This document shows, in pieces, positions 5,160 through 63,999 of a DNA stretch of 64,000 bases; position 1 is the stretch's first letter; every line of letters starts with the position of its first letter. The notes beneath the pieces were generated by a model. It was not told where the DNA came from. It made no database searches and saw nothing but the letters and a program-made list of their open reading frames with translations. Location: NCBI GenBank assembly GCA_963665845.2, contig OY762492.1, forward strand, positions 1,824,001-1,888,000. Reading direction: 5' to 3'. The DNA is from Candidatus Poribacteria bacterium. GTDB taxonomy: Bacteria; Poribacteria; WGA-4E; GCA-2687025. The position numbers and the translations under genes were made by a program.

Positions 5160-5252
5160 GTCCCGCTTCCGCGAGGACATGCATTCCCGCCCTCGCGGTA
5201 AAAGCGCGGGAATCTTAAGGCGCCGCAAACCCCTAGCCCCCTTAAGGGGCAG
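5160..5252. repeat. Composite intergenic hairpin repeat (expanded ATTCCC..GGGAAT with an adjacent 20-nt inserted hairpin, plus CCCCTT/AAGGGG hairpin)
   Basis: ATTCCC...GGGAAT at 5183-5213; CCCGCTTCCGCGAGGACATG at 5162-5181; AAACCCCTAGCCCCCTTAAGGGG follows. Confidence 0.8.
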
Positions 5253-5280: not shown

Positions 5281-5379
5281 GTTTGAACTAGGATTGAAGG
5301 ATTTTTAAGATTGCCAAGATTAGCGGCTCACGGGAATTCTCTTGGCAATCTTTTCAATCTTGGCAATCCTAGTTCAGAC
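5281..5379. repeat. Inverted-repeat element with internal 9-nt periodic units
   Basis: GTTTGAACTAGGATT ... AATCCTAGTTCAGAC ends; GATTnnnAA-like units mirrored on both arms; half copy near 53280. Confidence 0.75.
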
Positions 5380-5395
5380 AACGAGATCAAGCTTT

Positions 5396-8300
5396 TCACT
5401 TGACCCGCGTTTGATATTTCTCAAAGAAGGCGCGCGACTTCTCCGTCTCCGGATAGGAAACGTCCGCTGGATACGGATAGCTCGGCATCGCCTTAAACGG
5501 CAGCGGACCGATCGTCATCGGATGCGCCGTGTAAAGGTCCATATCCTTGCAATACCCATGCGCATCGAACGCAAAACTGCGGACGCAGCCCTCTGGCACG
5601 GGCGGGAAATCGTCCGCGCGGAACGCCAGCTCCAGCCCGTCCCCCCGCCCCATGATGACAAACTGATCGTCCACCTCCGTCAACAGCGGCAGGACGTCGC
5701 CGAAACGGGTGTGAACGCCGCGCATGTTTTTGAACGGAAACGACGGGTCTATGCTGTCGTAATCGTATAGGCGCGGCATGCGTCCGTCGGGCGAGTATTC
5801 GCGCGGATAGCCCGCCCTTCGCAAGACGGCGCGCGACGCTTCGACTCGATGAAGCGCGGCGGGGCGCGTGGACGCCGCCGCTATAAACAGCTCGTCGATG
5901 TAGATTTCCTGATTCATCCGCAGACGCAGTTCGCGCCATTCGTTCGGCTGAAGGTCGGGCAGCTCCAGCGTCATCATTTTCGGCATGCCGGCGGGATAGC
6001 CGGCGCTCGGCGCCGCAGCGCGCCATTCGCCGTCCGCGCCCCGCGCGTCAACGCTCATCCCCTCCAGCGCCAGCCCTTCCTGCGCCGCCGCGTAATTGAT
6101 GTGCGAATACGGATACTCCACCCAGCCGTAAATGAACAGTACCAGCCGCTCGCCCGTTTTGATCTGAACCGCCTCCTCTGAAAACTGCAGATGAATGGAC
6201 GCCTCTTGCTCTAAAAAGCCGAGGCGCCGCCTGTGCCGTTTCAAGGGCTGATAGACGCGGTCGCGCGCCGCGAGAGCCGGAAGAATGTCAAGTCCCTCAT
6301 AGCCTGCCCCCGTGAAAACGGGGGTCATTTCCGCGCTGATCGGATAATGCCGCTTTGAGAACACATAAAACTGCTCCGTCGGCAGATTCCCGTCCGCCGC
6401 AAACCGCTCGTCTGGATACGCCTCCGTCCCGACGGGATGGTCAACCGCTGTCAGCCCGACCGCGTCCAGGTAGACCGCCTCCTCCATTGGCTCCATGATC
6501 TGAAACAGGTATTCGCCTCTTGCGCCTGCGCGATCAGAAATCTTCGGCGCCAGCTGCCCCGCCTCCAGTTGGACGCGCTCCGTCGGGTCGGGCTGCGCAT
6601 AGACGCCCGGCGCTAAAAAGAAACCGAGTCCGCCGACGCCTAGAAAGTCGCTGATAAACTCATACCGCTCGCCGTTCCACGCAAACAGAATCGGACATGA
6701 GGACGCTTTCCGCTGAACCTCCTTCACCCGCCGAAACTGATTGGCGGGCAGCTCCAGCTCCGACTGCAGAACGCCGTTTGGCCAGAGGATGCGCAGATAG
6801 TCGGCTCCTTCCCGCCGCCCTAAGCCGAACTCAAGATGCGGGTTGGATGCGATGAAGGCGCCGCCGATCATATGCCGCTCCGTCTGACGGCGCATTCCGC
6901 CCGATCGGATTTCAACCTGCGCGCCGTAGCCGGAACGGTTGGCGCGTTCCCCCTCCAGCGCGATATGAAGCCATCGGTTCGCATTTCCGCCTTCGTTTTG
7001 GTAGATGATCAGTTGTCCAGCGTCGTCCAGCGTGAGCAGGTCGCTGTCGCCGTCCGCGTCCATGTCAGCCGCCGCGATCGGTCCGCGCAGGTTTGCGGCG
7101 ATGTTTAAGCCGAATCGTTCGGAGGCGTCTTGGAACGCGCCGGCGCCGTCGTTTTCATAAAGGCGAACGCCGTTTTTTTCGGCGAAGGCGATGTCCAGAT
7201 CGCCGTCGTTGTCCGCGTCAAACGGAACGGCGGAATGCGCCTGGGGCGGGTCTGGGAATTGCAGCCGTTCAAATCTGCCGTCTCGGTTGAGCGCCATCTC
7301 CGCGCCGCTTGGATATAGAAGCAGCAGGTCGACGTTGCCGTCCCCGTCAAAATCGCCTGCTATAGGCGCGATGCGCTCGCCGCCTGGTTTCATTTCCGCC
7401 AGACCCGTCTGCGCGGAGATGTCTGTCCATCGGTTCAATCGGTCGTTTCGATAGAGGCGGGGGGAGCTTCGCTTTGGCAAGGCGATCAGGTCGACGTCCA
7501 TATCGCCGTCTGCGTCGCCGAGGGCGAAGGGCGCGCTGTTCTCTTCCTCTAATTTTTGCTCTATTTTTTGAAAGGCGCCGTTTCCGTTGTTGCGGTAGAC
7601 GGCGAGCGTCTCGGCGCCGGCGGCGATCAGGTCAAGGTCGCCCTCATGGTCCACATCCGCCCATGCCGCTGTATGAATGCCGCCCGCCGCCGCAATGCCG
7701 CTTTCAGCCGTCGCGTCCACAAAACGCATACCGCCCTCGTTTCGCAAAAGTCGGCTCTCTTTCTCCCCAAAGGCGAACAGGTCGGCGTCGCCGTCATCGT
7801 CCATATCGCCGAAAACGCCGCTCATGTACCCTTTAACCGGCATCGGCGCCGTTTCTATCAAACCAGCCTCCGATGAAATGCAGACGACGCCGGCGTTCGG
7901 CAGGTAGATGTCGAGCCGTCCGTCCTGGTTCAGGTCGATCAGCGCAAACCCGTTCTCGCTTGTTTTTACGGGCAGCTCCAGCCGCTTGCGCTTGAACAGA
8001 ACCTTGATTTTCGTTTGGACGCTTTCTTCTTCAGGAAGCGGATAGATTCGGACGACATCCGCATAGACGCCCATTTCGCCGTATGCCATCGCGCGCTTGA
8101 CGCCGGCGTTTGCCGCGTCCATTTCTCTAAAGAGAGCCATCTCTTTCACCGCTTCGTCTCGCCGTTTGAGCCGCACGAGCGCTTGTCCGAGAGAGTAGCG
8201 CGCCGACAAGAGATACGGGTTGATTTCAACCGCCCGCCGCAGCGCCGCCTCCGCCTGTTCATACTCGCCGCGCGTCAGCAGGATGGCGCCGATGAAATAG

Positions 8301-8716
8301 AGGCTGTCGGCGCTGTTCGGGTCGCGCTTGAGCGTCTCGTTGAAATGACGGAACGCCGCGTCGTTGTCGCCGCGGTAGCGCGCTAAGACGGCGAGCGCGT
8401 ATGGCGGATGGGGCATTTTGGGGTTGAGCGCGTCCGCTTTGAGAAAGGCGGCTTGGGCAAGGTCAAGCGCGTCCGCCGCTTCAGGGTCAGACGCCGCGTT
8501 CAGCTGGGCGACGCCGAGGTTCATCCACGCATACTCCCATTCGGGCGCGCGTTCAACCGTTTTTTGAAACGCTTGAACCGCGTCCGCAAACCGGTACTGC
8601 TCCATCAACCCGACGCCGCGGTTCATCCATTTGACCGCCTCGGCGTCCTGCGCTTGCGCGGCGCATGTCCATAAAGCGCATACGGCAAGCGCCGCCGCTG
8701 TCAAGATGCGTCTCAT
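5396..8716 (-). CDS. Secreted TPR + FG-GAP + ASPIC/UnbV (CRTAC1-like) protein
   Basis: Signal peptide, TPRs, multiple DxDxDGDxD repeats, NR.GYGAQV..HLEFGLG..WPNG (ASPIC/UnbV), C-terminal SSCP domain. Confidence 0.88.
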   Translation of the reverse strand: MRRILTAAALAVCALWTCAAQAQDAEAVKWMNRGVGLMEQYRFADAVQAFQKTVERAPEWEYAWMNLGVAQLNAASDPEAADALDLAQAAFLKADALNPKMPHPPYALAVLARYRGDNDAAFRHFNETLKRDPNSADSLYFIGAILLTRGEYEQAEAALRRAVEINPYLLSARYSLGQALVRLKRRDEAVKEMALFREMDAANAGVKRAMAYGEMGVYADVVRIYPLPEEESVQTKIKVLFKRKRLELPVKTSENGFALIDLNQDGRLDIYLPNAGVVCISSEAGLIETAPMPVKGYMSGVFGDMDDDGDADLFAFGEKESRLLRNEGGMRFVDATAESGIAAAGGIHTAAWADVDHEGDLDLIAAGAETLAVYRNNGNGAFQKIEQKLEEENSAPFALGDADGDMDVDLIALPKRSSPRLYRNDRLNRWTDISAQTGLAEMKPGGERIAPIAGDFDGDGNVDLLLLYPSGAEMALNRDGRFERLQFPDPPQAHSAVPFDADNDGDLDIAFAEKNGVRLYENDGAGAFQDASERFGLNIAANLRGPIAAADMDADGDSDLLTLDDAGQLIIYQNEGGNANRWLHIALEGERANRSGYGAQVEIRSGGMRRQTERHMIGGAFIASNPHLEFGLGRREGADYLRILWPNGVLQSELELPANQFRRVKEVQRKASSCPILFAWNGERYEFISDFLGVGGLGFFLAPGVYAQPDPTERVQLEAGQLAPKISDRAGARGEYLFQIMEPMEEAVYLDAVGLTAVDHPVGTEAYPDERFAADGNLPTEQFYVFSKRHYPISAEMTPVFTGAGYEGLDILPALAARDRVYQPLKRHRRRLGFLEQEASIHLQFSEEAVQIKTGERLVLFIYGWVEYPYSHINYAAAQEGLALEGMSVDARGADGEWRAAAPSAGYPAGMPKMMTLELPDLQPNEWRELRLRMNQEIYIDELFIAAASTRPAALHRVEASRAVLRRAGYPREYSPDGRMPRLYDYDSIDPSFPFKNMRGVHTRFGDVLPLLTEVDDQFVIMGRGDGLELAFRADDFPPVPEGCVRSFAFDAHGYCKDMDLYTAHPMTIGPLPFKAMPSYPYPADVSYPETEKSRAFFEKYQTRVK

Positions 8717-25800: not shown

Positions 25801-25835
25801 TTCCCCCCTTGAAAAGGGGGGCTAGGGGGGTTTAA
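25801..25835. repeat. CCCCCCTTGAAAAGGGGGG hairpin repeat
   Basis: Same motif followed by CTAGGGGGGTTT recurs near 32323, 45330, 46839 and (reversed) 53341-53641. Confidence 0.85.
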
Positions 25836-27958: not shown

Positions 27959-28006
27959 GATTCCCGCGCGTTACGTTTTACCGCAAGGGGCAAGGGCGAG
28001 AATGAC
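27959..28006 (+). repeat. 48-bp expanded ATTCCC..GGGAAT repeat, copy 1
   Basis: 47/48 identical to 30170-30217. Confidence 0.9.
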
Positions 28007-32309: not shown

Positions 32310-32408
32310 CGCCGCGTCCGATTCCCCCTTGAAAAAGGGGCTAGGGGGTTTAAAAGACGGGCGCGGCGACTGCGATGCCTTAAGATTCCCGCTTACGCGG
32401 GAATGACG
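32310..32408. repeat. Composite repeat (CCCCTTGAAAAAGGGG hairpin + ATTCCC-N8-GGGAAT)
   Basis: About 100-bp unit closely similar to 46826-46927; ATTCCCGCTTACGCGGGAAT at 32385-32404. Confidence 0.85.
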
Positions 32409-45221: not shown

Positions 45222-45361
45222 GGATTCCCGCGCGTTTTACCGCAAGGGCGGGAATGCATGCCCCCGCGGGCATGTCCTCGTGAAAACGGGGAAGCGGGGG
45301 ACGATAATGAAGCGCGGGGTTTCTGGACTCCCCCCTTGAAAAGGGGGCTGGGGGGGTTTTA
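45222..45361. repeat. Nested hairpin repeat cluster
   Basis: Expanded ATTCCC..GGGAAT, a 22-nt hairpin holding a second 22-nt hairpin (45257-45300), CCCCTTGAAAAGGGG hairpin. Confidence 0.85.
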
Positions 45362-45958: not shown

Positions 45959-46861
45959 ATGTCAACGCGCGATGGACTGGATCGGTTTTACACGGCGCCT
46001 GAAACTGCGCAGAAATGTTTGCGCGTTTTAAAACAATTCATCGCCGACGCCGGCGTCCAACAGCCTGGATACATTGAGCCGTCCGCCGGCGCGGGCGTTT
46101 TCTTGTCGGGCTTGCCCTCCTCAACCATCGCCATGGACATTGCGCCGCCTTCCGATTGCGGCTGGATGCCGAAGCGCGACTATCTCGCTTGGAAGTACAC
46201 GGGTTCGCGGCGGCGAAGCCGCATGGTCGTCGTCGGCAATCCGCCGTTTGGACAGCGGGGGAAAACGGCAGTCGCGTTCATCAACCATGCCGCCTCTATG
46301 GCCGACACCATCGCGTTTATCCTGCCCTCCTGTTTTCGCAAATGGGGTTCCCAAAAGCAGGTCGCGTCCGACCTGACGCTTCAATCGTCAACGGACCTGC
46401 GCGGGGATCTGTATTTAAAACCGGACGGCAGAACGGTCGCGCTCAACACCGTTTTTCAGATTTGGAGCCGGCATACGCCGTACCCGAACTTGCGCAAGAC
46501 GGAGCGCGAGCCGACCGCCCATCCCGACTTCAAGATGCGGCAGTATAACAACACGCGGGCAACGGAGCGGTATTTTGACATGCCGTTCGACTTTGCGGCG
46601 CCGTGTCAGGGCTGGCAAAATTACGCCGTCAAGCGGCGGCGCGCCGACGAGTGCGAGCGGCATAAGCAATGGATGCTTTTCCTCGCGACCGCGCCGCATG
46701 CGCTGGATATGCTTTACCGCATCGACTTTCAGGAGCTGGCGCACCGGAACGGCACTGCGGTTCCGGGTTACCGCAAGAACGATGTCGTATCAGAATATAA
46801 GCGGCTCGTTTCTCTCCATCGAACCGCCGCGTCCGATTCCCCCCTTGAAAAGGGGGGCTAG
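45959..46861 (+). CDS. Orphan SAM-dependent (probably N6-adenine DNA) methyltransferase
   Basis: LDRFYT, YIEPSAGAG, VVGNPPFG, IAFILP; GGAG RBS. Confidence 0.82.
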   Translation: MSTRDGLDRFYTAPETAQKCLRVLKQFIADAGVQQPGYIEPSAGAGVFLSGLPSSTIAMDIAPPSDCGWMPKRDYLAWKYTGSRRRSRMVVVGNPPFGQRGKTAVAFINHAASMADTIAFILPSCFRKWGSQKQVASDLTLQSSTDLRGDLYLKPDGRTVALNTVFQIWSRHTPYPNLRKTEREPTAHPDFKMRQYNNTRATERYFDMPFDFAAPCQGWQNYAVKRRRADECERHKQWMLFLATAPHALDMLYRIDFQELAHRNGTAVPGYRKNDVVSEYKRLVSLHRTAASDSPLEKGG

Positions 46862-47192
46862 GGGGGGTTTAAAGAACGAGCGCGGCGGCTCCGAAACCTT
46901 AAGATCCCCGCTTACGCGGGAATGACGATCCGGTTGACGAGGCTTTTTTCCGATTCATTCGGCATGGGAACGCGGACGTCATCCCCGATGCCTCTGGATT
47001 CCCGCTTACGCGGGAATGCATGTCCTCGCGGAAGCGGGGAACGGTCTGGTTGGCGACGCCTTTTTCCCATGAATAGAGCGATCGTCGGTTCAAATGTCCC
47101 AACTCTGGTTGTGAACGCGGGCGGTTTCGGGGCGGACTCTGGATTCCCGCTTGCGCGGGAATGACGATCCGGTTTGCGGCGCCTTTTCCCAG
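46826..47192. repeat. Mosaic repeat cluster (three ATTCCC-N8-GGGAAT-type hairpins, an inserted 22-nt hairpin, MITE-internal sequence)
   Basis: Hairpins near 46903, 46998 and 47143; reverse-complement similarity to 25869-25990. Confidence 0.85.
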
Positions 47193-53258: not shown

Positions 53259-53279
53259 AGAACATTGCCGCGTCTCGCT

Positions 53280-53650
53280 TGTCTGAACTAAGATTTTCAG
53301 GATTGAAAAGATGGACAAGAAGAGTGTTAGCCGCGACTAGAAAACCCCCTAGCCCCCTTTTCAAGGGGGAAGAGAGGCGCGCTCTACCCGCCGTCATTCC
53401 CGCGCAAGCGGGAATCTTAAGGCGCTGCAGAAACCGTCCGCCCGCCGCGTACGGCGGAAACCCCCCCAGCCCCCCTTTTCAAGGGGAGAGTCCAGAAACC
53501 CGCGCCCTATGCGCTGTCCCCGTTATCCCGCGCCATAAACCCCCCCAGCCCCCCTTTTCAAGGGGGAGTCTAGAAACCCGCGCCCTCTCCGCTGCCCCCG
53601 TTACCCCGCGCCATAAACCCCCTAGCCCCCTTTTCAAGGGCGAAGAGTCG
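53280..53650. repeat. Intergenic repeat cluster including about 78-bp tandem units
   Basis: Half 9-nt-periodic element; ATTCCC-N8-GGGAAT at 53396-53415; units start at 53458, 53537 and 53615, each with CCCC(C/T)AGCCCCC(C)TTTTCAAGGG. Confidence 0.85.
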
Positions 53651-53727
53651 CGTCAGATTCGCCCTCTTGATTCATGGCGCAAAATAAAGCATCCTATGCG
53701 CGAAACGAAACTCAACGGGAGCCGCCC

Positions 53728-57486: not shown

Positions 57487-59823
57487 TCATTTCAACAGAA
57501 CCATGCGCCGCGTCTCTGAAAAGCCGCCCGCCTCAATGCGGACGAAATAGACGCCGCTGGCGGCGGGCGCGCCGAGAGCGTCCTTGCCGTCCCAGTACGC
57601 CGCCTTCTCTTTAACGCGGTAGGAACCTACCGGCAGTTCGCCCAGCTCCAACCGCCTGACGGTTTGACCCGCCGAGTCGTAGATCGTTATCGTCACGGCG
57701 CTTTCTTGCGCCAGATCGAACGGGATCCAGGTTTCAGGGTTGAACGGGTTTGGGTAATTCGGGAGGAGCGCGTTCTTGAATAAATGAGGCGAATTCGGGC
57801 GCTTCACGTCTGACCAGAAAATCGGCAGGTCTTCAACGCGCCACAGTAAAACGCGCCCGTCTTTTCCGCCGCTGATGAGCGAACGGCTGTCGGGAGAAAA
57901 CTCAACCGAATTCACATGCCCGAAATGCCCCTTCAGCGTTTTCTTCAGCGCAAACGTTTCGGCGCTCCAAATCCGTACCGTTCCATCCTCGCCCGCGCCG
58001 GCGATATGCTTGCCGTCAGGCGAGTACGCCATCGTCTGAACGACGCCTTCATGCCCAGCCGTCTTTCCCTTTAACGCGCCATTTTCGGCGCTCCAGACGC
58101 GCACAGTGGAGCGTTCTCCTCCAACCGCTATCGATCTCCCGTCCGGCGACAACGCCAACGCGCCATAGGACCCGAGCCCTTCCGCCGTTCGAAGAAGCTC
58201 CCTCGTCTCCACATCCCAAAGATGGACGATCCCCCCTCCCCCAGCGGCGGCTAAAACGGTTCCGTCTTGTGAAAACGACAAATGAGAAGCCCATCCGCTC
58301 GGAGACGCGAGCGCGTCCGTTGCCTCGCCCGTTGAGATGTCCAGAAAGCGCACGATCTCTTTTTTAACGAGCCTGTTGTTGAAGGCGAGCGTCTTCCCGT
58401 CAGGAGAGTAGGCAAACGAACTTGGAGAGTAGCCTTTCAATTCCACAATCTGCTCTCCCGTCTCCGCGTCCCATACGCCGATCGCATACTGCTCGCTGAA
58501 GCCGGCGACGGTCCGCCCGTCCGGCGAAAACGCGGACGGTCCAGGATAAGCTCTGATGCGCCTCTTCTCCTCCCCTGTCGAAACATCCCAAATGTGAATC
58601 CCGCTGCTCGTAGAGTACGCGTCAACGCCGGAAGTGGCGACCGAAAGCCCATCCGGCGAAAACGAAACCGACCGGATCGGGGAGCTGCCCGGTATCCTGT
58701 ATTCAGCCTGCTTTTGCGCCTGAACATCCCAATAATGAAACGGAGCGGCGGCGGCTAGATAAGAAGAATAACCCGCCAACCGACCTTTCGACGCGAATAG
58801 AAGATTCGTTGTTTCTGGATTCTCAACAGCCGCCAACCGCTCGTTTTTCTTCGGATCCCAAACCTGAATCGTCATGGTACGATTTAAGACGTCTCTTTTA
58901 AAGGCGGCGATGGTTCGGCTGTCCGGCGAAAAGCCGGCAAAGCCGAAGCCGTCGGGCATCTCCATCAACGCTTCGCCCGTACTCAAATCCCAAATGCAGT
59001 TTTTCGCTCCGCTTCTTCCCGCGGCGGCGCTTCCGTCAGGCGCAAACGCCGCATAGGTCAAACCTTCCCCAATGACGCGCAGGCGCTCGCCCGTTGCCGC
59101 ATCCCAAACATAAACCGACGCAACCCGCTCAAAAAATTCCCCCGTGTAGTTGACGCTCGCAAGCGATCGGTTGTCAGGCAAAAACATAATCCGATACCGG
59201 GATGGATAAATCAAGTTGCCCCGCACATCGACAGGCGTATTGAACCGAGTTTTTAACTGCGCCGTTTCCACATCCCAAACATAAACGGCTTCCTTTCCCG
59301 CGCCGGCGAGAAGCCGCCCGTCATGTGAAAACGCCAGCGACTGTATCGGTTCGCCGACCAGCTCAACCGCCGACAGCGTCTCTCCCGTTTCCACATCCCA
59401 AACATAAATCCGCTCCTCCCTTTTGCTTGCGGCAATCGTCCGATTGTCAGGCGAGAAAGCGATGGCTCCGTAATAGCCGAGTTCGTTTGAAACAGCCAGC
59501 ATCTTGCCCGTTTCCACATCCCAAATGCGGGCGTTGTAATAACTAGAGGAAATGAGGTATCGGTCGTCCGCCCAAAACTTCAACCAGTCCACCTCATAAT
59601 CGTACGCTCCAAGCGTTGAGACCGGCTCCCCCGTTTCAGCTCTCCATAGACCGACCAATCCGTTCGTGTCCCCTGTGGCAAGCAGCTCCCCATTGGAAGA
59701 CAACGCCGCCCGCCAGATGGTTCCTGGGGGCCGCCCAACAAGCGTCTGCGCCTCCCCCTTTTCAACCGGCAAGCAAACTGCCGCCAACGCCGCCAAAATC
59801 CATGCCGCCGCGCTTTTTCTCAT
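57487..59823 (-). CDS. Secreted WD40-repeat protein with FlgD-Ig/T9SS-type C-terminal domain
   Basis: Signal peptide, many FSPDG...WD repeats, LLPNYPNPFNPETWIPF...WDGKD...ASGVYF...MVLLK. Confidence 0.9.
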   Translation of the reverse strand: MRKSAAAWILAALAAVCLPVEKGEAQTLVGRPPGTIWRAALSSNGELLATGDTNGLVGLWRAETGEPVSTLGAYDYEVDWLKFWADDRYLISSSYYNARIWDVETGKMLAVSNELGYYGAIAFSPDNRTIAASKREERIYVWDVETGETLSAVELVGEPIQSLAFSHDGRLLAGAGKEAVYVWDVETAQLKTRFNTPVDVRGNLIYPSRYRIMFLPDNRSLASVNYTGEFFERVASVYVWDAATGERLRVIGEGLTYAAFAPDGSAAAGRSGAKNCIWDLSTGEALMEMPDGFGFAGFSPDSRTIAAFKRDVLNRTMTIQVWDPKKNERLAAVENPETTNLLFASKGRLAGYSSYLAAAAPFHYWDVQAQKQAEYRIPGSSPIRSVSFSPDGLSVATSGVDAYSTSSGIHIWDVSTGEEKRRIRAYPGPSAFSPDGRTVAGFSEQYAIGVWDAETGEQIVELKGYSPSSFAYSPDGKTLAFNNRLVKKEIVRFLDISTGEATDALASPSGWASHLSFSQDGTVLAAAGGGGIVHLWDVETRELLRTAEGLGSYGALALSPDGRSIAVGGERSTVRVWSAENGALKGKTAGHEGVVQTMAYSPDGKHIAGAGEDGTVRIWSAETFALKKTLKGHFGHVNSVEFSPDSRSLISGGKDGRVLLWRVEDLPIFWSDVKRPNSPHLFKNALLPNYPNPFNPETWIPFDLAQESAVTITIYDSAGQTVRRLELGELPVGSYRVKEKAAYWDGKDALGAPAASGVYFVRIEAGGFSETRRMVLLK

Positions 59824-59835
59824 CTCATCCGCCTT

Positions 59836-62100
59836 TCATTTCAACAGAACCATGCGCCGCGTTTCTGAAAAGCTGCCCGCCTCAATGCGGACAAAATAGA
59901 CGCCGCTGGCGGCAGGCGCGCCGAGGGCGTCCTTGCCGTCCCAGTACGCCGCCTTCTCTTTAGCGCGGTAGGAACCCGCCGCCAATTCGCCCAGCTCCAT
60001 GCGCCTGACCGCTTGACCCGCCGAGTCGTAGATCGTTATCGCCGCGGCGCTTTCTTGCGCCAAATCGAACGGGATCCACGTTTCGGGGTTGAACGGGTTC
60101 GGGTAATTCGGCAGAAGAGTCGTCTGCAATAGCCGAGAATTCGGCTGCCGAAAGTCGGACCAAAGGACAGGCAAATTCTCAAGCAGCCATAGCAGGACGC
60201 GCCCATCCTTCCCGCCGCTGATGAGCGAACTGCTGTCGGGGGAAAACGCGACCGAATTCACCCGCCCTACATGCCCCGACAACGTTCGTTCCAGCTGAAA
60301 CGTCTTCGCGTTCCAAAGCAGTATCAACCCGTCGTTTCCCGCGCTGGCGATCGTCTCTCCGTCTGGAGAATACGCGACGGAATATACATACTTCTTATGC
60401 CCTCTCAGATTTGTCCGAAGATAGCCGCGCTCCGCGCTCCAAATCCGCACAACCAAGTCCTTCCCGCTGGAAACAAGCGTTTTCCCGTCCGGCGAAAAGG
60501 CGATCTCATCCGCCTCCGCGATGCCCACGATGTTTATCGATTGTTTCAGCTCGTCTGTTTCCGTATCCCAAAGGCGAATCGACTCCTCGCCTGCCGCGGC
60601 GAATGCCGCCCCGTCCGGCGAATACGCGATCGCTTGAATGCTGCTGTCATGCTCGTAGGTCTTCTTTAAACGCGCGCTTTTTGCGGCGTCCCAAAAATAC
60701 ACCTTTTTCGTGGCATTACCGACCACATAAGCGAGCGTCTTTCCGTCTGGAGAATAGGCGACCTGCCCCATAAGAGCTTTAGCAATCTCTGCAATCGTCT
60801 CCCCTGTCGGAACTTTCACCGCTTCAAAGCTCACGCCATCGTTGGATGCTACGGTACGGCCGTCCGGCGACAGCGCCGCAGCGCCGGTGGAGGCGGGTGT
60901 CCACATGCGCAGTTCCCCTGTCGACGCGTTCCAAATGCGGGCTATATAGCTCCAATCCCCTCCGACGCTCAAAACGCTTCTGCCGTCTTGGGAAAACTGA
61001 ACCGAGACGACCTCCGATCCATGCCCCTCCAACCCTTGATGCGTCTGAAGCGTCTCTGCATCGTAAATAGCGATGTCCAAGCCGGCAAGCCCGACGATCC
61101 GCGTTGAGTCCGGCGAAAATCTCATTTTATACACGTGGATTTCCCGCTCAACTTTCAACGCCCCTGTCTCAACATCCCATACCCCGAACGAATCTACATC
61201 CGTTCGCCCGGCGGCCAGCTTGCCGTCGGGGGAAAATCCCAGAAACGAGTACACCCCCTCCAGCTCCGATTTGACCGCCCCTGTTTTCACATCCCATAGC
61301 AATATCTTACGCCAAGCCGACGTTTCCTTTTCGCCGTAAGTCGCCAGCGTTGCGCTGTCCGGCGAAAGATAGGCGCGGTACAGACCGGCGTCATAAGACC
61401 GCTTCACCTCGCCCGTAAGCGCGTCCAAAAGATGAACGGCGACGACGTTATCGGCGCGAAAGCTAACAGCAGCGATCGTTCGGCTGTCCGGCAGAAAGAC
61501 CAGATCGCTCAAGTCTTCCGGCGTTTCGATCAAGGCGGTCAGCTTCCCCGTTTTCAAATTCCAAACCTCAACCTGTCCCTCTTCCTCGCAGGCGGCGAGC
61601 CGTCCGTCAGGAGATAGATTCGCTCGAAAAACTATGCCGAAAGAGCTCTTCATTTCCGTTAAAATCCTGCCTGTTTCCGCATCCCGCAGGCGCAAAACTC
61701 CTTCACGACCGCTGGCGATAAACGCCTTGCTGTCCGGCGTAAAGGCGGGGTAGGAACAAAGATACTCATCCTGCGGCAACCGCTCTGGTTTTCCTGTCTC
61801 AACATGCCAATAAGCTTTTCCTGGATAGGCGGCGAGGTAACGTCCATTCGGAGAAAAATACAGCCCATATATCCAAGATTTCCCGTCAATGATTCGCAAT
61901 AATTCGCTTGTCTCCGCGTCCCATATGCGAATCAAAGAGTTTTCCCCGACGCTGGCGATCCTCTTGCCGTCATGCGAGAATTCCGCCCATCTTGCCACCC
62001 CCTGGTGACGCCCAATTTGCCTCTGCGCCTCACCGCTCTCAACCCAGAAACAGAGCGCCGCCAAACCCGCCAAAACCGATGCCGCTGCCCGTGTCATCAT
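59836..62100 (-). CDS. Secreted WD40-repeat protein with FlgD-Ig/T9SS-type C-terminal domain
   Basis: Same architecture; AAGGAG RBS. Confidence 0.9.
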   Translation of the reverse strand: MMTRAAASVLAGLAALCFWVESGEAQRQIGRHQGVARWAEFSHDGKRIASVGENSLIRIWDAETSELLRIIDGKSWIYGLYFSPNGRYLAAYPGKAYWHVETGKPERLPQDEYLCSYPAFTPDSKAFIASGREGVLRLRDAETGRILTEMKSSFGIVFRANLSPDGRLAACEEEGQVEVWNLKTGKLTALIETPEDLSDLVFLPDSRTIAAVSFRADNVVAVHLLDALTGEVKRSYDAGLYRAYLSPDSATLATYGEKETSAWRKILLWDVKTGAVKSELEGVYSFLGFSPDGKLAAGRTDVDSFGVWDVETGALKVEREIHVYKMRFSPDSTRIVGLAGLDIAIYDAETLQTHQGLEGHGSEVVSVQFSQDGRSVLSVGGDWSYIARIWNASTGELRMWTPASTGAAALSPDGRTVASNDGVSFEAVKVPTGETIAEIAKALMGQVAYSPDGKTLAYVVGNATKKVYFWDAAKSARLKKTYEHDSSIQAIAYSPDGAAFAAAGEESIRLWDTETDELKQSINIVGIAEADEIAFSPDGKTLVSSGKDLVVRIWSAERGYLRTNLRGHKKYVYSVAYSPDGETIASAGNDGLILLWNAKTFQLERTLSGHVGRVNSVAFSPDSSSLISGGKDGRVLLWLLENLPVLWSDFRQPNSRLLQTTLLPNYPNPFNPETWIPFDLAQESAAAITIYDSAGQAVRRMELGELAAGSYRAKEKAAYWDGKDALGAPAASGVYFVRIEAGSFSETRRMVLLK

Positions 62101-62112
62101 CCAATCTCCTTT

Positions 62113-63999
62113 TTATTTCAACAGAACCATGCGCCGCGTTTCTGAAAAGCTGCCCGCCTCAATGCGGACGAAATAGACGCCGCTGGCGGCGGGCGCGCCG
62201 AGGGCGTCCTTGCCGTCCCAGTACGCCGCTTTCTCTTTAGCGCGGTAGGAACCTGCCGGCAGTTCGCCCAGCTCCAACCGCCTGACCGTTTGACCCGCCG
62301 AGTCGTAGATTGAGATCGTCACGGCTCTTTCTTGCGCCAAATCGAACGGGATCCACGTTTCGGGGTTGAACGGGTTCGGGTAATTCGGCAGAAGCGCGTT
62401 CTTGAAAAGAAGAGGCGAATTAGGGCGTTTAACGTCTGACCAGAAAACAGGTTGATCTTCAAACCTCCACAGCAGAACGCGCCCGTCTTTTCCGCCGCTC
62501 ACAAGCGAACGGCTGTCGGGAGAAAACGCGACCGCGTTCACCCACCCGACATGCCCTCTAAACGTCTTCTTCAGCGCAAATGTTTTGGCGCTCCAAATCC
62601 GTACCGTCCCGTCCTTTCCTCCGCTGGCGATATGCTGTCCGTCAGGCGAATACGCCAAAGCATAAACGGCGCCCTCATGACCGATCATCTTTCCTCTCAA
62701 CGCGCCGTTCTTCGCGCTCCAAACGCGCGCGATGGAGTCTTCTCCTCCAACCGCTATGGATCCTCCGCTCGGCGACAACGCCAGCGCATGAACAGACTTG
62801 ACCCCTTCCACGGTGCGAAGAATCTCCCGCGTCTCCACATCCCAAAGATGGACGTTTACCTCGCTCCCAGAAGCGGCTAAAACGGTTCCGTCTTCTGAAA
62901 ACGCCAGATTAGAAGCCCATCCGCTCGGAGACGTGAACGCCTCCTCCGTCCTTCCCGTTAAGACGTTCAAGAAACGTATGTCGCCGCGGCGATTGGCCGC
63001 ATTGTTGTTGAAGGCGATCTTCTTTCCGTCGGGAGAATAGGCAAACGAACTGGGAGAGTAACCTCTCAATTCCATGATCGTCCTCCCCGTTTCCGCGTCC
63101 CATACGCCGATCATATTGTTGTAGCTGACGCTGGCGATGGTTTGCCCATCCGGCGAAAACGCGGACGGTCCAGAATAGGTTCTGATATGCCTCTTCTCCT
63201 CTCCGGTTGAAACATCCCAGATGCGAATGCCCTCATCGGCGCCCCATATATCGTTGCAGGAGCTGGCGACAGAAAGCCCATCCGGTGAAAACGACAGAGA
63301 CGCAATCTCCGAACTTCCCGCAACGAAGAATTGAGCGTTCAGCCGCCCCTGGATGTCCAAACGAGCGAACTCGGCCTCCCGAAGCGGCATGAACATCCTC
63401 GCCAAAAGCAGGCTGTTTGAGGAGAGCAGGACATAGTTCCGATTGCCAGCCTCTACGACCGACGCCAGATCCGTTGCCTCTACATCCCAAATCTGAATCG
63501 TCCTCGTACCGCGTTCCCTGTTGTCTCTTGAAGCGGCCATGAATCGGCTGTCAGGCGAGAAAACCGGCGGGCTAAAACCTTCCTCAAACATGATCAGCTC
63601 CTCACCCGTTCTCGGGTCCCAAAGACCGGCCTTCCCGCCGTTGTACGCCGTCAGCGCGCTCCCGTCCGGCGCAAACCTAACGTTCGTGAGATTCCCGCCA
63701 AACTCAAGCAGATTCTGCCCAGTTTCCACATCCCAAACATGGACAGACGCAACAACCTTTTGGTCGTACTTTGTATAGCTGACGCTGGCGATGGAGCGGT
63801 TGTCTGGAAGGAACGCAATGCGGCCATCATACGGATACGGCTGCCACCATCCCCGCGAATCGACCGGGGTCTTGAAGCGCGTTTTCAGCTCCCCTGCGGC
63901 TGCGTCCCAAATATACGCTTCCTCATCCCCGGCGCCGGCGGCAAGCCGCCCGTCATGCGAAAAAACAAGCGATGCGATCTCCTCGCTGGAAGCCTCCAG
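62113..63999 (-). CDS. WD40-repeat protein with FlgD-Ig/T9SS-type C-terminal domain (5' end beyond the window)
   Basis: Frame stays open to the window edge (LEASSEEIASLVFSHDGR...); closest to 57487-59823. Confidence 0.9.
   Translation of the reverse strand: MEASSEEIASLVFSHDGRLAAGAGDEEAYIWDAAAGELKTRFKTPVDSRGWWQPYPYDGRIAFLPDNRSIASVSYTKYDQKVVASVHVWDVETGQNLLEFGGNLTNVRFAPDGSALTAYNGGKAGLWDPRTGEELIMFEEGFSPPVFSPDSRFMAASRDNRERGTRTIQIWDVEATDLASVVEAGNRNYVLLSSNSLLLARMFMPLREAEFARLDIQGRLNAQFFVAGSSEIASLSFSPDGLSVASSCNDIWGADEGIRIWDVSTGEEKRHIRTYSGPSAFSPDGQTIASVSYNNMIGVWDAETGRTIMELRGYSPSSFAYSPDGKKIAFNNNAANRRGDIRFLNVLTGRTEEAFTSPSGWASNLAFSEDGTVLAASGSEVNVHLWDVETREILRTVEGVKSVHALALSPSGGSIAVGGEDSIARVWSAKNGALRGKMIGHEGAVYALAYSPDGQHIASGGKDGTVRIWSAKTFALKKTFRGHVGWVNAVAFSPDSRSLVSGGKDGRVLLWRFEDQPVFWSDVKRPNSPLLFKNALLPNYPNPFNPETWIPFDLAQERAVTISIYDSAGQTVRRLELGELPAGSYRAKEKAAYWDGKDALGAPAASGVYFVRIEAGSFSETRRMVLLK

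Follow-up and report, generated by a model that had tools for sequence, protein, structure and literature searches.

A very small mobile hairpin that inserts into repeats, itself and genes, spread far beyond cyanobacteria

The closest known elements to the short hairpin described here, unit A, are the SDR elements of cyanobacteria. SDR1-8 of Nostoc and relatives (Elhai et al. 2008, Genome Res 18:1484) are reportedly dispersed sequences of 21-27 nt that fold with compensatory changes, insert precisely into other repeats and into themselves, have an unknown mover, and are said to be confined to a cyanobacterial subgroup. The accessible text of PMC4390886 also cites SDR elements. REP repeats with GTAG or CGTC tags and their RAYT/TnpA-REP proteins are covered in the available portions of PMC3733652 and PMC8266576, and those of the latter describe guide pairing 5' of the palindrome for IS200/IS605 and for REP/TnpA-REP. 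A further family, NTS/SRM, is associated with the Ssn GIY-YIG single-stranded DNA (ssDNA) nucleases in the available text of Chenal et al. 2025 (PMC11893778), where SsnA binds GNRA-looped NTS only as ssDNA and the Neisseria enzyme cuts a few bases upstream of NTS (about 3 nt, reckoned from oligonucleotide lengths). NTS is the CGTC-1 REP described by Di Nocera et al. (PMC3733652).

Hairpin units in the host repeats of the window

The window is the whole 64-kb stretch analyzed here, from a genome that is 90% complete (G000); a congeneric genome is called G001. The host repeat of the window matches the NTS consensus, and its exact pattern occurs 707 times in G000, 164 times in G001, 11 times in G003, and never in the other 38 genomes searched. 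We also found an ssnA-like gene of 102 aa (PF01541, GIY-YIG; G000:C1:2298872-2299177) flanked by inverted SRM copies; its 91% identical orthologue in G001 is also SRM flanked. The other two GIY-YIG matches of G000 are longer UvrC-like genes. This host-repeat layer, SRM plus Ssn gene, is already known. Plain SRM repeats read GGGAATG-AC, and unit A occupies that junction at 47019 and 5162; a second unit, B, lies in SRM loops. A first-pass annotation of the window had placed the copies of both units correctly, as we found on re-examination, and had overlooked a CCTG-tagged unit A at 6302-6323. The units are not chance matches, with 197 exact matches to the unit-A pattern in G000 against 0 for the reversed control, and 81 against 0 for unit B. 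The window contains the following features (a slash marks an insertion point).

45223..45303, minus strand: host NTS/SRM hairpin, CGTC-tagged, GNRA sense on the minus strand, matching the consensus in the available text of PMC11893778; unit B splits its loop and a nested unit A lies between stem and tag
45232..45247, minus strand: unit B, 16 nt, replacing the 4-nt host loop; the minus strand reads C-CTTG-CGGTAAAACG-C
45256..45299 (45256-45269 plus 45292-45299), plus strand: outer unit A, C-type, GGAA loop
45270..45291, plus strand: inner unit A, T-type, GAAA variant, inserted at GG/AA of the outer loop
46997..47017, minus strand: host SRM hairpin with unit A at its tag junction
47018..47040, plus strand: unit A, T-type, 22 nt plus the 3' purine closing the stem
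5162..5182, minus strand: unit A, short in its G run
5191..5205, plus strand: 15-nt variant of unit B, filling the loop of an SRM that spans 5182-5214
6302..6323, plus strand: CCTG-tagged unit A adjoining half an SRM, inside a TPR/FG-GAP/UnbV gene (5396-8716, minus strand)
27968..27995, minus strand: doubled (nested-looking) unit B in an SRM loop
30179..30206, minus strand: doubled (nested-looking) unit B in an SRM loop
25930..25949, plus strand: empty SRM hairpin, the reference state
32385..32404, minus strand: empty SRM hairpin
46904..46923, minus strand: empty SRM hairpin
47143..47162, minus strand: empty SRM hairpin
53396..53415, plus strand: empty SRM hairpin
25801-25833, 32320-32352, 45328-45360, 46837-46869 and 53342-53652: second hairpin family

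The second hairpin family (C-run, TTGAAAA, G-run) has 476 loose copies in the genome, and we found neither a DUF559 gene nor another partner gene for it; at one G001 locus (L045), unit A lies within a hairpin of this type. A third repeat family (5340-5381 and 53279-53320; 92 loose copies) contains internal units of 17-18 bases in variable number, and three tandem paralogous genes of WD40-like repeats occupy 57487-63729. An Rfam search of the window gave no match. The composite of half an SRM and unit A at 6290-6340 adds 24 nt, or 8 residues, in frame to the TPR/FG-GAP/UnbV gene; these residues are missing from the orthologues in five relatives (G001, G002, G003, G005, and G007), and the arrangement recalls the Rickettsia RPE insertions in proteins.

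The consensus of unit A is (A)G-CHTG-Y-CCYCGY-GNAA-RCGGGG, followed by a purine. The unit is 22-23 nt long, with net inserts of 21-23 nt, a 5' end that varies and a 3' end that is precise, and its ends are uncertain by one base. The first-pass boundaries enclosed a real unit, for which the better frame, G-CATG...GGGG, lies one base further left. The strand that reads tag first folds into a 7-bp stem (z scores of -2.9, -3.3, and -4.0), while the opposite strand folds poorly (z about -1.2). Stem covariation, which the annotation had proposed as a check, is seen as compensatory pairs among 145 non-redundant sites from other records: the pair at positions 11 and 16 is C:G in 87, T:A in 52, C:A in 4, and T:G in 2, and that at 5 and 22 is T:A in 66, C:G in 60, T:G in 12, and C:A in 7, under a search pattern that allowed all four combinations. 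The 145 include a few same-genus sites and a few chance matches; L061 and L107 (chance matches in coding DNA, judged by eye) and L174 were kept in the counts. Tags in this set, for which search patterns fixed CHTG or CATG, are CCTG in 60, CATG in 43, and CTTG in 42. The three bases 5' of the tag are purines in 127, 128, and 126 of the sites; the unit itself contributes one or two of the three, and the target just 5' of it is purine rich (AAG, CAG, AAA, or GAA). We take unit A to resemble the hairpin half of type I-E CRISPR repeats, possibly by convergence, and L174 may be such a repeat.

Unit B is almost confined to this genus, with 10 exact copies in G001 and 0-3 in each of 40 other genomes. 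It fills 102 SRM loops, 16 nt replacing the 4-nt loop, and also replaces 5 nt in a second repeat; about eight copies are doubled, and half-doubled forms exist. The proposal that all units are stems capped by GNRA loops fits unit A and fails for unit B, whose fourth loop base is A, G, T, or C in 58, 34, 6, and 4 of the 102 copies, with no conserved GNRA loop. The evidence does not make unit B a clean mobile unit: none of its copies was shown to lie in unique DNA, and when it was modeled as a clean 12-base insertion, no cut left a normal host loop. It may arise by slippage or recombination between repeats, or may be a fixed part of a composite repeat. Read on the opposite strand, its copies start with C-CTTG (55 of 102), C-CCTG (30), or C-CATG (5), and since these starts are the tag set of unit A, unit B is likely, on its sequence, a degenerate sibling of unit A read on the other strand.

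Insertion sites of unit A and the landing rule

Beyond G000, the exact unit-A pattern has 44 copies in G001 and 0 in the other six family members. A loose search of G000 gave 265 matches at about five types of junction: the SRM tag junction (152 filled versus 997 empty), the loop of unit A itself, the 3' stem of the SRM, a junction at a CCTG tag on the opposite strand, and a single related hairpin. Because the junction types are few, copy number overstates the number of insertion events, and the 197 copies likely reflect a few insertions into the SRM that were then multiplied with it by copying or gene conversion. Nearly all copies (230 of 236) lie outside the deep interior of ORFs of at least 300 aa. 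Self-nested units account for 27 copies, and in 25 of these a GAAA-type inner unit lies in a GGAA-type outer one; this difference between inner and outer rules out tandem duplication. Some half-nested forms look like later deletions.

The SRM is also the site of a larger element. All nine examined copies of an IS110 family in G000 (C1:534696, 3504287, 3073743, 3698695, 527264, 3809945, 1263916, 1533233, and 746215; loci L188-L192 and others) share a right end at one SRM position (..GATAC, then TCCCGC or a variant), and the left ends begin after CGTCAT in 8 of the 8 displayed. This IS110 is SRM specific, with a site 2-3 bases from the main site of unit A. We considered it as the mover of unit A and rejected it, since it inserts at its own SRM site.

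In G001, we examined 36 loci around the exact copies and scored 46 copies, which lie mostly in the SRM loop (GAA/A or GCA/A), in the loop of the unit itself, nested to several levels, and in the stem of the SRM. We found no empty hairpin whose loop reads GAAG in G000 or in G001, which assigns the G ahead of the tag to unit A. The sister-genome comparison that the annotation had suggested yielded orthologous filled and empty sites, in which unique flanks 87-91% identical align around gaps of 22 nt. At L039 and L036, G001 carries the unit and G000 lacks it; at L024, both genomes carry one, at two different sites of the same SRM, so that each is filled where the other is empty. Since gene conversion from filled repeats could also yield such pairs, they show turnover rather than new insertion. 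The 20 sequencing runs listed were all contigs, and the four that we compared break at these repeats. At the G001 repeat loci (L014-L045), the two flanks often map far apart in G000, and repeat clusters coincide with rearrangement breakpoints between the two genomes.

The best proof of independent movement comes from insertions in genes. Unit A interrupts Pfam-recognised genes on the sense strand at 11 distinct positions, and deleting 21-23 nt restores the frame at each. The interrupted genes, whose IS family names are partly our interpretation of Pfam labels, are as follows.

IS256: L124
IS3-type integrase core and first ORF: L359; L334 and L226
IS66: L316 and L362; L302
IS630-like: L313 and L367; L346
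Phage integrase: L330 and L353
IS5-like: L366
ISAzo13: L331
ISL3: L304

Nine positions have a net insert of 23 nt, L124 has one of 22 nt, and L302 has one of 21 nt, the last judged from the upstream frame and by eye. Pfam profile positions are continuous across the junction at L330, L353, and L346, and L359 carries the empty form of the L334 site. An antisense insertion in a Cas1 gene also returns to frame when 22 nt are deleted, so that 11 of 12 insertions in Pfam-recognised genes lie on the sense strand, a weak, post hoc bias (p about 0.025 versus motif frequency). We left L056 and L089 (frame kept with the unit) and L125 and L343 (without firm Pfam support) out of the 11, and 60 further flanking frames gave no new Pfam match. 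No gene site has a target duplication. Together with the orthologous filled and empty pairs, these interruptions bear out the earlier claim that unit A is an ultra-short element with insertion sites of its own. They also refute, for unit A, the reading that the units belong permanently to composite REP-like repeats, spreading only by duplication and gene conversion and nesting by slippage. In favor of that reading are the concentration of G000 copies at one junction, the repeat loci that are rearrangement points between G000 and G001, and the half-nested forms; against it are frame-breaking inserts in unrelated genes without a flanking repeat, the 145 non-redundant sites, and the unlike partners in the nests, and we regard it as very improbable.

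All 11 gene insertions lie at codon boundaries, where the following G is the first base of the next codon and hence target DNA. We asked whether the boundary bias links insertion to translation and set this aside: in these genes, 40 of the 53 sense-strand occurrences of AAG, CAG, or AAA before G are themselves in frame, so the bias is largely explained by the motif. All 11 units are C-type and land before G, a base that comes after 38% of such triplets in these genes; the raw probability overstates this preference, because the search pattern demanded a purine after the unit. In a separate scan of viral loci, the base after the core was a purine in 36 and a pyrimidine in 2. At loop sites in G000, G001, and G069, T-type units precede A. 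One non-SRM repeat, empty in 14 copies of G069 and 9 copies of G046, is filled differently in each genome, at TCAA/A by T-type units in G069 and at TCAAA/G by C-type and wobble T-type units in G046. At most sites, the 3' purine comes from the target and forms a base pair with the stem foot, C-type units lying before G and T-type units mostly before A. Exceptions occur at the SRM tag junction of G000, where 68 T-type copies end in an A that is missing from the empty site (a final G is found there in 22 T-type and 36 C-type copies), and at a GCAAGC/GGG site that requires an A from the donor; in light of these, the ends of unit A are defined to within one base. The junctions seen are AAG/G, CAG/G, AAA/G, GAA/A, GG/A, and AAT/G, with no target complementarity seen beyond one base, further downstream.

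We also found unit A well outside this genus. A pattern search of GTDB gave at least 101 stretches, with many phyla and one archaeal record among the matches listed, and a metagenome search gave at least 124; viral records contain 36 unit-A loci, and 40 other carrier genomes have 1-102 copies each, with 0 control matches. A plasmid BLAST search gave only chance-level matches. Of 64 non-redundant empty sites, 20 fold better than shuffled sequences at z below -2. The first-pass annotation had called the units hairpin targeting, and for unit A this holds in part: hairpin targets are favored but not required, as ordinary coding DNA is also struck. At three loci from viral and metagenome records (L163, L167, and L321), unit A is preceded by repeated left halves of 9 bases, and at two of them (L163 and L167) it is followed by repeated right halves of 12 bases, a pattern that deep nesting or slippage would give. 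Some SRM loops (L348, L327, L338, L164, and others) hold unit A together with a differently tagged sibling, the two arranged head to head, and CCTG-tagged units with other loops occur near unit A (L053, L086, and L372). These sibling and other-loop units make up a wider family.

Candidate routes of movement

The first-pass annotation had proposed an HUH/RAYT-like or other nuclease encoded outside the window and had suggested a search for a partner gene. A profile search of G000, at 90% completeness, gave no match to Y1_Tnp/RAYT (PF01797), DUF559, RVT_1, or Cas1; of the partner genes that the annotation had named, only a GIY-YIG gene, the SRM-flanked Ssn gene, was present; the Y2_Tnp profile matched nothing anywhere, its controls included, and was uninformative. 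Among 31 repeat-flanked ORFs of G000, ssnA was the sole nuclease that we recognised by eye. The 40 other carriers contain profile matches to Y1 in 23, to Ssn-like proteins in 30, to reverse transcriptase (RT) in 18, and to DUF559 in 24; G053, with 31 copies of unit A, has no match to Y1, RT, Ssn, or DUF559, and no candidate mover family is common to all 40. Across 146 unit-A loci, no neighboring gene family recurs except related phage genes and the interrupted mobile genes.

We tentatively propose, at somewhat less than even odds, that unit A moves as folded ssDNA through a cut-and-join enzyme of HUH-like type that acts in trans or has since been lost. We favor such a mover because the joint is precise and lacks a duplication, the fold is confined to one strand and leaves the tag unpaired, and a base pair governs the landing site, all of which resembles IS200/IS605 and TnpA-REP as described in PMC8266576. 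In the proposed mechanism, the folded strand of unit A would form a single-stranded intermediate, the target would be exposed in hairpin loops or on the non-template strand, the pyrimidine at the stem foot would select the target base by pairing, and the predicted enzyme would carry out a phosphotyrosine-type strand transfer. Against this proposal, neither G000 nor 17 of the 40 other carriers has a Y1/RAYT match, G053 matches none of the candidate families, no neighboring gene family stands out, the pairing rule has the exceptions given above, and reverse transcription explains the variable 5' end (21-23 nt) equally well. In the contig runs, neither an excision intermediate nor polymorphism within the population was seen.

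An RNA route, in which reverse transcription copies a short, structured RNA into a nicked site, primed by the one-base match between 3' purine and target, has reportedly been proposed in this form for cyanobacterial SDR elements. The precise 3' end and variable 5' end, the GNRA loops and G-T wobble, and the sense-strand insertions are consistent with it, but RVT_1 is unmatched in G000, in G001, and in 22 of the 40 other carriers, the strand bias is weak and post hoc, and GNRA mini-hairpins suit ssDNA as well, given that SsnA binds the GNRA-looped NTS in single-stranded form only (PMC11893778); we consider this route unlikely. Alternatively, Ssn or a paralogue might nick ssDNA, and host repair, by template switch or by ligation of a released mini-hairpin, might capture the unit. 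Unit A shares the tag-stem-GNRA layout of the SRM, with loop variants common to both, the ssnA-like gene is SRM flanked in G000 and G001, and Ssn-like matches occur in 30 of 40 carriers versus 3 of the 41 genomes of the relatives search (G000 included). That association is confounded, however, since SRM-rich genomes multiply filled copies, and five carriers with 18-61 copies lack a match to the query (G043, G045, G046, G053, and G069). The published cut site lies upstream of NTS in Neisseria, whereas unit A lands inside tag, loop, or stem, and the gene insertions are far from SRMs; an Ssn origin therefore seems quite unlikely to us.

The hairpin might instead hijack a universal host enzyme that cuts and rejoins single DNA strands, such as a type IA topoisomerase, without a dedicated transposase. 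This would accord with the absence of a family common to all carriers, with the span of carriers over many phyla plus an archaeal record among the matches listed, and with targets in loops and sense strands. TopA prefers C at -4, and 9 of 11 gene sites have it; over the 145 sites, however, C at -4 shows no clear excess (33% versus 28% background), and in genes it follows from GC-rich third codon positions. The patchy distribution among relatives, with 0 copies in 6 of 7 family members, is also at odds with a universal enzyme, and we judge the hijack distinctly improbable. A bolder, doubtful version holds that such 22-base, transposase-less elements are pan-prokaryotic and hijack a universal host single-strand enzyme, with one base pair choosing the landing base; if true, this would be the smallest programmable, scarless insertion system known.

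Comparison with known elements

Whichever enzyme moves it, unit A is likely among the smallest mobile DNAs known, and it bears on how bacterial repeats of 20-30 bases move. It offers a defined 22-mer substrate, many natural filled and empty targets, and a testable rule (C before G, T before A), so its mover can be hunted biochemically; a duplication-free, base-guided ssDNA insertion reaction would also serve as a tool. Since unit A frameshifts transposase and integrase genes, it may parasitise larger mobile elements and ride them between phyla. Full-text searches of open-access articles, together with citation and neighbor searches, gave no description of this unit, whether as a nested or as a 22-bp hairpin insert.

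By consensus, the host repeat of unit A belongs to the NTS/SRM family and has its SRM-flanked ssnA-like gene, but the available text of PMC11893778 mentions no unit inserted into NTS. With REP/RAYT, as described in the accessible parts of the sources above, unit A shares a four-base tag 5' of a short, strand-specific stem-loop, a tag region that guides the site, and a mostly extragenic palindrome within the 20-40 bp range. In contrast, its tags are CATG, CCTG, and CTTG rather than GTAG or CGTC, it moves as a single 22-mer where REP moves as a doublet, its junction precedes a purine where that of REP is C/T or C/A, and we found no cognate RAYT gene in G000. MITEs have terminal inverted repeats and a target duplication, whereas unit A has an unpaired 5' tag and no duplication at any site. 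Unit A is therefore outside REP/RAYT, by tag, junction, and lack of a RAYT, and outside MITEs. With IS200/IS605, as presented in the available portions of PMC8266576, it shares a single-strand hairpin and insertion without target duplication. There, a tetranucleotide guide 5' of the palindrome selects the target by base pairing; in unit A, a similar pairing is seen for one base only, with exceptions, and the element is one gene-free hairpin of 22 nt in a genome where no Y1 transposase was found.

The likeness to the SDR elements, as these are reported to be, goes further. At 22-23 nt and 197 copies, unit A falls within the SDR size class, its fold is conserved with compensatory changes, and it inserts precisely into other repeats and into itself. 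Compared by description only, it differs in its presence in many other phyla, its CHTG tag, and its one-base target rule. Unit A is a very small mobile hairpin that has spread far beyond cyanobacteria and has a testable landing rule.
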